NCBI RefSeq assembly: GCF_003334315.1
Contig: NZ_QOWR01000143.1
Strand: one strand, 5' to 3'
Length of the DNA: 233 nucleotides
DNA from: Escherichia coli
GTDB taxonomy: Bacteria > Pseudomonadota > Gammaproteobacteria > Enterobacterales > Enterobacteriaceae
Of this stretch, positions 1-233 are shown in pieces. The notes under the pieces are model-generated. The model did not search any database, was not told the DNA's origin, and saw nothing but the letters and a program-made list of their open reading frames with translations. How positions within the stretch are numbered: position 1 is the stretch's first letter; the number at the start of each line of letters is the position of its first letter. The position numbers and the translations under genes are program-made.

Positions 1-132
1 CCAACCTTCTGCACCAGAAATAACGGCACAAATAGTCAACAGTAGAATATCCGATAATTTATGTTCCACTTTCCAGGTTTGTCTGTAATCGGGGATAATA
101 GAAATATGTTCCATCAATTTTTTAAGTTCCAT
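1..132 (-). CDS. ISAs1-family (H-repeat-associated) DDE transposase, N-terminal 44 codons; 5' end complete, 3' end runs off the window at position 1
   Basis: Reverse-complement of 1-132 is an open frame starting at ATG (complement of 130-132) with no stop: [44 protein letters not shown]. The motif D-x-R-x(6)-H-x-L-x-D-I-L-x(3)-I-x-A-x-I-x-G-A-x-x-W is the signature of the DDE_Tnp_1-associated N-terminal domain of ISAs1-family transposases. From memory the peptide closely matches the start of E. coli H-repeat-associated proteins (YhhI-like); this was not verified by search. A strong RBS lies at the correct spacing. Confidence 0.88.
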
Positions 133-138
133 TTTGTT

Positions 139-144
139 CTCCTT
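139..144 (-). promoter_or_regulatory. Shine-Dalgarno sequence (AAGGAG) for the transposase
   Basis: Minus strand reads AAGGAG-AACAAA-ATG: a perfect core Shine-Dalgarno hexamer with a 6-nt spacer to the start codon. Confidence 0.75.
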
Positions 145-158
145 AATTAGGTAAGGAG
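139..158. repeat. Perfect 7-bp inverted repeat (CTCCTTA / TAAGGAG) with 6-nt spacer, overlapping the transposase RBS; potential stem-loop
   Basis: Plus 139-145 ctcctta and 152-158 taaggag are exact reverse complements, separated by attagg (146-151). On the minus-strand transcript this is CUCCUUA-CCUAAU-UAAGGAG, immediately followed by AACAAA-AUG. The stem has 3 G:C and 4 A:U pairs and cannot extend (positions 138/159 do not pair). Confidence 0.55.
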
Positions 159-233
159 TATTTGATCATGTATAAGCAATAAAAAACAGCTTCAGGTAAT
201 AAGGAATATCTCAATTTTTAAACATAAAATGCG

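Follow-up and report, generated by a model that had tools for sequence, protein, structure and literature searches.

The question raised by the window analysed here, a stretch of 233 nt of Escherichia coli DNA, is what it belongs to and whether the DNA around it was horizontally acquired. A preliminary description made from the letters alone had seen in it an H-repeat/ISAs1-type element and had proposed an acquired context, either an Rhs-associated locus or a polysaccharide locus. We found that the 5′ end of yhhI, in E. coli K-12 as in many other strains, matches the window at 233 of 233 bases, and that yhhI is annotated in the matching strains as ‘ISAs1-like element ISEc1 family transposase’; the 100% match in NC_000913.3 lies at locus L003 8278–8510. 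On the minus strand, positions 132..1 give a stop-free translation of 44 residues. Within H-rptB, the ISEc1 copy that carries yhhI, the window takes up the promoter-proximal interior and consists of the leader and the first 44 codons. Its features are as follows:

1..233, minus strand: interior of H-rptB/ISEc1, left end (100% match to NC_000913.3)
1..132, minus strand: first 44 codons of yhhI, with the ATG at 132–130, covering the start of the DDE_Tnp_1_assoc N-terminal domain (translation, annotation of the matches, PF13808)
133..233, minus strand: 5′ leader of yhhI, within the IS, 27.7% G+C (composition, repeat search, alignment of the K-12 copies)
139..158, minus strand: 7-bp hairpin that includes the Shine-Dalgarno motif AAGGAG at 144–139 (fold, motif scan)

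Two other reading frames, one of 29 aa on the plus strand (61–150, antisense to yhhI) and one of 23 aa on the minus strand (143–214), are mechanical ORFs and were rejected as genes.

The limits of the element come from an alignment of five K-12 copies (yhhI, ydcC, ybfD, ybfL and ybfQ) together with the terminal repeats, which gives a length of 1,291 bp (L003 8236–9526). Similarity among the copies starts upstream at CAGGGAAAGATCA, 42 bp past window base 233, and stops downstream at TAATCTTGCCCTG, directly after the yhhI stop codon. The terminal repeats of H-rptB (CAGGGAAAGATCA / CAGGGCAAGATTA) are imperfect 13-bp inverted repeats, complementary at 11 of 13 positions, and both termini lie outside the window. 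Family and domain models were scored on full-length YhhI from the identical K-12 copy (378 aa), the 44 residues in the window being too short to score. YhhI reached 412.4 bits against the NCBIfam model NF033564 ‘ISAs1 family transposase’ (cut-off 70), and Pfam placed DDE_Tnp_1_assoc (PF13808) at residues 8–94 and DDE_Tnp_1 at residues 102–343. Of the traits of the ISAs1 family, H-rptB has the single DDE transposase ORF, the length of ∼1.2–1.3 kb and the terminal inverted repeats. In start codon, leader, transposase family, 1,291-bp length and terminal inverted repeats, the window's element is as H-rptB/ISEc1 of K-12 (yhhI, b3484), and we detected no difference between the two beyond the window being a fragment. 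The identity with yhhI, the NF033564 score and the Pfam domains thus bear out the assignment to an H-repeat/ISAs1-type element.

The window has a G+C content of 32.2% over its 233 bases, with 35.6% in the coding part (1–132) and 27.7% in the leader (133–233). The preliminary description had put it at ∼32%, well below an enterobacterial core genome, and this is accurate: the K-12 core flanks (∼43 kb from three loci) have a mean G+C of 51.7%, so that the host is not uniformly AT-rich, and only 2.0% of the 233-nt windows within them are at or below 32.2%. It had further taken the low G+C as a sign of a horizontally acquired context, and this step is weak. The whole element has a G+C of 40.1% and is most AT-rich at its left end, where a 233-nt stretch reaches a minimum of 28.8%. 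Because the window is wholly internal to the IS and comes from this end, its low G+C stems from the AT-rich 5′ end of the IS itself and does not report on the adjoining DNA, and we rejected it as a signal on the flanking cargo. A short window wholly within a multicopy IS is uninformative in its own composition about what lies next to it. All 233 bases are IS sequence and none of them is rhs sequence, in line with the earlier remark that the neighbours cannot be seen in the window.

Within the leader, the mRNA strand (minus) can form a hairpin, CUCCUUA-N6-UAAGGAG, with arms at 158–152 and 145–139, whose 3′ arm contains the Shine-Dalgarno motif AAGGAG (144–139), 6 nt 5′ of the ATG. It folds with −8 kcal/mol (z −2.73), a value reached by 2 of 200 shuffles. 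The arms are retained in most of the ∼25 copies compared; no compensatory changes were seen among them, and these copies are too alike for covariation support. The hairpin may occlude the ribosome-binding site and restrain translation of yhhI. Other IS transposases are known to be restrained in their translation in a comparable way. Folded as a whole, the 134-nt leader shows nothing unusual (z −0.70), an Rfam search of the leader returned no family at E up to 1, and a simple scan of its minus strand showed no sigma-70 consensus promoter. A terminator-like match on the plus strand at 139–158 was set aside as the same palindrome as the Shine-Dalgarno hairpin of the minus strand. Taken alone, the 101-nt leader is also a repeat, with 19,115 places across E. 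coli genomes.

The window is a multicopy repeat. A megablast of the window against 5,426 complete E. coli genomes found 24,316 places, spread over 5,334 genomes at a median of 5 each, and among the matches listed every place was annotated as an ISAs1-family (ISEc1) transposase. The H-repeats of K-12 at RhsE (ydcC) and at RhsC (ybfD, ybfL and ybfQ) are the same element, stand at the distal ends of their Rhs loci and can be aligned across the full window. Unlike yhhI, ybfL is a pseudogene, and ybfD and ybfQ are truncated ORFs. Identity to the window is 100% for yhhI, 98.3% for ybfD, 96.6% for ydcC, 91.4% for ybfL and 90.6% for ybfQ, so that in K-12 the RhsB copy alone is identical and the others differ at 4 to 22 positions. 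Because none of the K-12 copies at the other Rhs loci matches the window exactly, and because the number of records that hold a window copy of at least 99% identity (1,779) is close to the number of genomes in which an RhsB-specific query for the yhhH–yrhC–IS left-end junction is covered to at least 80% (1,812), exact identity of the window seems to mark the RhsB copy. An exact-match look-up can in this way place a multicopy repeat at one locus where its paralogous copies differ at few positions.

We then opened six copies with 100% identity (two MG1655 records, E2865, 214-4, E. coli C and 99-3165). All six have the gene order rbbA–yhhJ | yhhI (H-rptB) | yrhC–yhhH–rhsB | nikR, with the identical copy directly downstream of rhsB–yhhH–yrhC at the distal end of the RhsB locus and rhsB ∼0.8 kb from the left end of the IS. 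RhsB of K-12 scored 2,643.8 bits against NF041261 RHS_core (cut-off 2,000) and also matched YD_repeat and Rhs_assc_core. The truncated yrhC, from a yibA-like HEAT-repeat gene, covers residues 1–81 of a 285-residue YibA-type model. The G+C content is a mosaic, with 61.8% in the rhsB core, 36.0% in its tip, 33.3% in yhhH and 40.1% in the IS, between flanks of 48–55%. Beside the identical copies there are, in other words, a YD-repeat/RHS-core ORF and a G+C-rich core followed by an AT-rich tip and a small downstream gene. This architecture, a G+C-rich core, an AT-rich tip/immunity region and an H-repeat, is as for Rhs elements in PMC3032704, and the identical H-repeat copies are the terminal module of locus 9 of PMC2935791. 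The window differs from the RhsB locus in holding no rhs sequence, and the association is drawn from public genomes.

The proposed Rhs association is thus upheld by all six identical copies, which lie beside rhsB–yhhH–yrhC between nikR and yhhJ. The preliminary description had also called for the flanks to be inspected, and in the public identical copies only one side is accessory (rhsB–yhhH–yrhC); on the other, beyond the downstream end of the IS, ordinary core DNA with yhhJ and rbbA starts 153 bp past the element. We consider it very probable that the window is H-rptB and that, in K-12-like strains, it is the last module of an accessory, strain-variable RhsB locus between nikR and yhhJ. The order of the locus is nikR, then rhsB (a YD-repeat core and an AT-rich toxin tip), yhhH as a small tip-linked gene, yrhC as a truncated yibA-like HEAT-repeat gene and H-rptB, followed by yhhJ, with the whole locus inserted between two convergent core genes; the source of the window would have the same neighbours as the identical public copies. 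The Rhs association of this E. coli repeat has been textbook knowledge since the 1990s, and H-rptB/ISEc1 at RhsB is a known element in a known place, already described, so that the significance of the finding is slight beyond correct annotation.

If the window came from some other ISEc1 copy, identical by coincidence over the 233 bases and located at RhsC, at RhsE, on a plasmid or in a further type VI effector island of the vgrG/PAAR kind, the context would stay accessory while moving away from RhsB. The repeat is multicopy, with its median of 5 places per genome, so that an identical copy elsewhere in some strain is conceivable beyond the six that were opened. Twenty-four of the places in the E. 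coli genomes are on plasmids, K-12 has relatives at both RhsC and RhsE, and similar islands carry the element in other strains and species. The ydcC copy of O157:H7 comes after vgrG, an RHS core protein and small ORFs, and FY10 has, at the RhsC site, copies that lie amid orphan rhs tips and a toxin gene of the HNH fold. Beyond E. coli, a survey by exact 22-mer with one genome per species turned up ISEc1-like copies only in Escherichia (E. albertii, E. whittamii and a further species of the genus) and in two species of Pseudocitrobacter, apart from MAG contigs that look mis-binned; in E. albertii, vgrG and an RHS core gene precede one of the copies, and in Pseudocitrobacter faecalis the copy comes after vgrG and a gene with a PAAR domain. 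Against such an origin, the K-12 copies at these other loci carry the 4 to 22 differences given above, separate plasmid matches are rare (27 records) and reach 98.7% at best, and six of the six opened 100% copies are at RhsB. We regard another copy as an improbable source.

A phage origin of the window was rejected. Matches in the phage collection were essentially absent, being limited to an unannotated record of 1.5 kb (91%) and a Salmonella record (78%). The former, OR845860.1 (‘Escherichia phage ECO95 1-6-1’), is 1,547 bp long and has its copy of the window at 1229–1461; this copy looks like host IS DNA, not phage sequence.

The polysaccharide locus, the other context that had been proposed, does exist for this IS family. 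A new O-antigen cluster from E. coli is reported to contain an ISAs1/H-repeat ORF (EPEC001, PMC9705854), and we found a copy with a shortened transposase ORF and 90.6% identity to the window in E. albertii NBRC 107761 (L008 7607–8571). The latter lies in an O-antigen cluster of 34.7% G+C with ugd, gnd, glycosyltransferases, glf, a flippase-like gene and neuC, and sits between ORFs of 367 aa and 312 aa, neither of which matches any NCBIfam family. Although these cluster copies belong to the same IS family as the window, their context differs from that of the identical copies, whose flanks contain no glycosyltransferase, wzx/wzy or nucleotide-sugar genes, which in such clusters classically stand between galF and gnd, in any of the six cases. 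In addition, the E. albertii cluster copy differs from the window at 22 of 233 positions, and no identical or near-identical copy that we opened was in such a cluster. It is therefore extremely improbable that the window derives from an ISEc1 copy within an O-antigen or capsule cluster, and the polysaccharide alternative fails for this copy; both of the proposed contexts occur with this IS, and the exact sequence points to Rhs.

To ask whether the RhsB locus is an acquired one, we compared the interval between nikR and yhhJ across strains. A composite query with both genes found them in 5,426 of 5,426 E. coli genomes. They lie within ∼1.5 kb of each other in 1,655 of these (30.5%) and further apart in the rest, and where they are close they are either adjacent or separated by hicAB or by IS1 (the last in one record). 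In AVS0096 the site is empty, with the stop codons of nikR and yhhJ 8 bp apart (L026 1291–1300), and in FDAARGOS_401 it holds a hicAB toxin–antitoxin pair (L027 1292–2100). The K-12 interval is 6,689 bp long and is taken up by the RhsB/H-repeat block (L003 2991–9679). The interval thus occurs in at least three configurations and shows presence/absence polymorphism at a fixed chromosomal site. It is one of the eleven E. coli rhs loci of Jackson et al. (PMC2935791), who describe frequent gain and loss of rhs genes and lateral acquisition of their C-terminal tips (2009, PMC2935791), and who also warn against treating rhs genes as classic accessory elements or as a mobile island (PMC2935791). From the polymorphism and the composition we infer that the RhsB locus was gained by lateral transfer, against which stands the core DNA of the yhhJ/rbbA flank. 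The variable nikR–yhhJ site and the mosaic G+C would agree with the horizontally acquired context of the preliminary description.

The acquired neighbourhood would fail altogether, and the low G+C would reflect the IS alone, if the window came from a solitary H-repeat with ordinary core genes on both sides. Such elements occur: a ydcC copy stands alone between ansP and yddH in Ecol_276 and CMZE120, and the window lies wholly inside the IS, whose left end, with its 28.8% minimum, is the most AT-rich stretch. However, these solo copies are just 98% identical over the leader and are at the RhsE site, not the RhsB site, and every identical copy that we opened has rhsB alongside, which makes a solitary source very improbable. 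The related copies that are not beside any rhs gene nonetheless count to some degree against the RhsB locus as the source.

In Ecol_276 and CMZE120 the H-repeat between the core genes ansP and yddH is a complete ydcC-type copy (L031/L032 4864–6101), beside which rhs, yncG/yncH and pptA are absent; this copy has the look of a remnant from an RhsE locus since lost. In UPEC-774U only a 99-nt stub of the left end is present at the RhsE site (L030 6001–6099), by a type VI effector island of the order PAAR–vgrG–DUF2169–PAAR-like. A further ISAs1-type copy, ∼70% identical, is found at yncI (L004 8594–8711; also in L011, L019 and L021), ∼1.2 kb upstream of the RhsE ydcC H-repeat, and is an older, diverged paralogue.

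The junction at the left end of H-rptB provides a view of how the present arrangement came about. In the ISAs1 family the target-site duplication is 8–10 bp. At H-rptB we found no direct repeat between the flanks ...GTCAACGGC and AATACAGGA..., so that the present junction did not come from a simple insertion, a point that weighs against the RhsB reading. The yrhC pseudogene of K-12 (L003 7888–8236, which is NC_000913.3 3623887–3624235) is the 5′ part of a yibA-like HEAT-repeat gene and breaks off precisely at the H-rptB left end; EC6622 and 2020N21-110 have the yibA-like gene intact (L028 6189–7031 and L029 6189–7031). Since there is no target duplication and the yibA-like gene is cut at the IS end, the data suggest that the left junction arose by a later deletion or recombination at that end.

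Transposition of H-rpt is stated not to have been observed (PMC3032704). The truncated yibA-like gene, the solo H-repeats and the 99-nt stub hint at an active role of the H-repeat in island turnover. Such a role is left open by the cut of the yibA-like gene exactly at the IS end without target duplication, by RhsE sites that lack an rhs gene and retain either a solo H-repeat or, in one strain, the stub beside a vgrG/PAAR island, and by a transposase ORF that is intact in many genomes though transposition is unseen. In its strongest form, the H-repeat would be a recurrent distal boundary module of Rhs/type VI effector islands whose ends drive adjacent deletions and the turnover of orphan toxin and immunity genes, which we think unlikely.

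Outside these genomes, one exact match of 26 nt to window positions 109–134 was found on a 239-kb contig of a Methanobacteriaceae MAG (L020 10993–11018); the match goes no further, and we discarded it as a chance AT-rich word. Short MAG contigs (L009, L011, L012, L014, L019 and L021) carry copies that are 91–97% identical to the window, several of them in an RhsE-like or RhsC-like tandem arrangement. Their MAGs are labelled Nanosynbacter, Planococcaceae, Streptococcus, Flavobacterium psychrophilum, Bacillota and ‘Proteobacteria’, and these copies are probably mis-binned Escherichia DNA.
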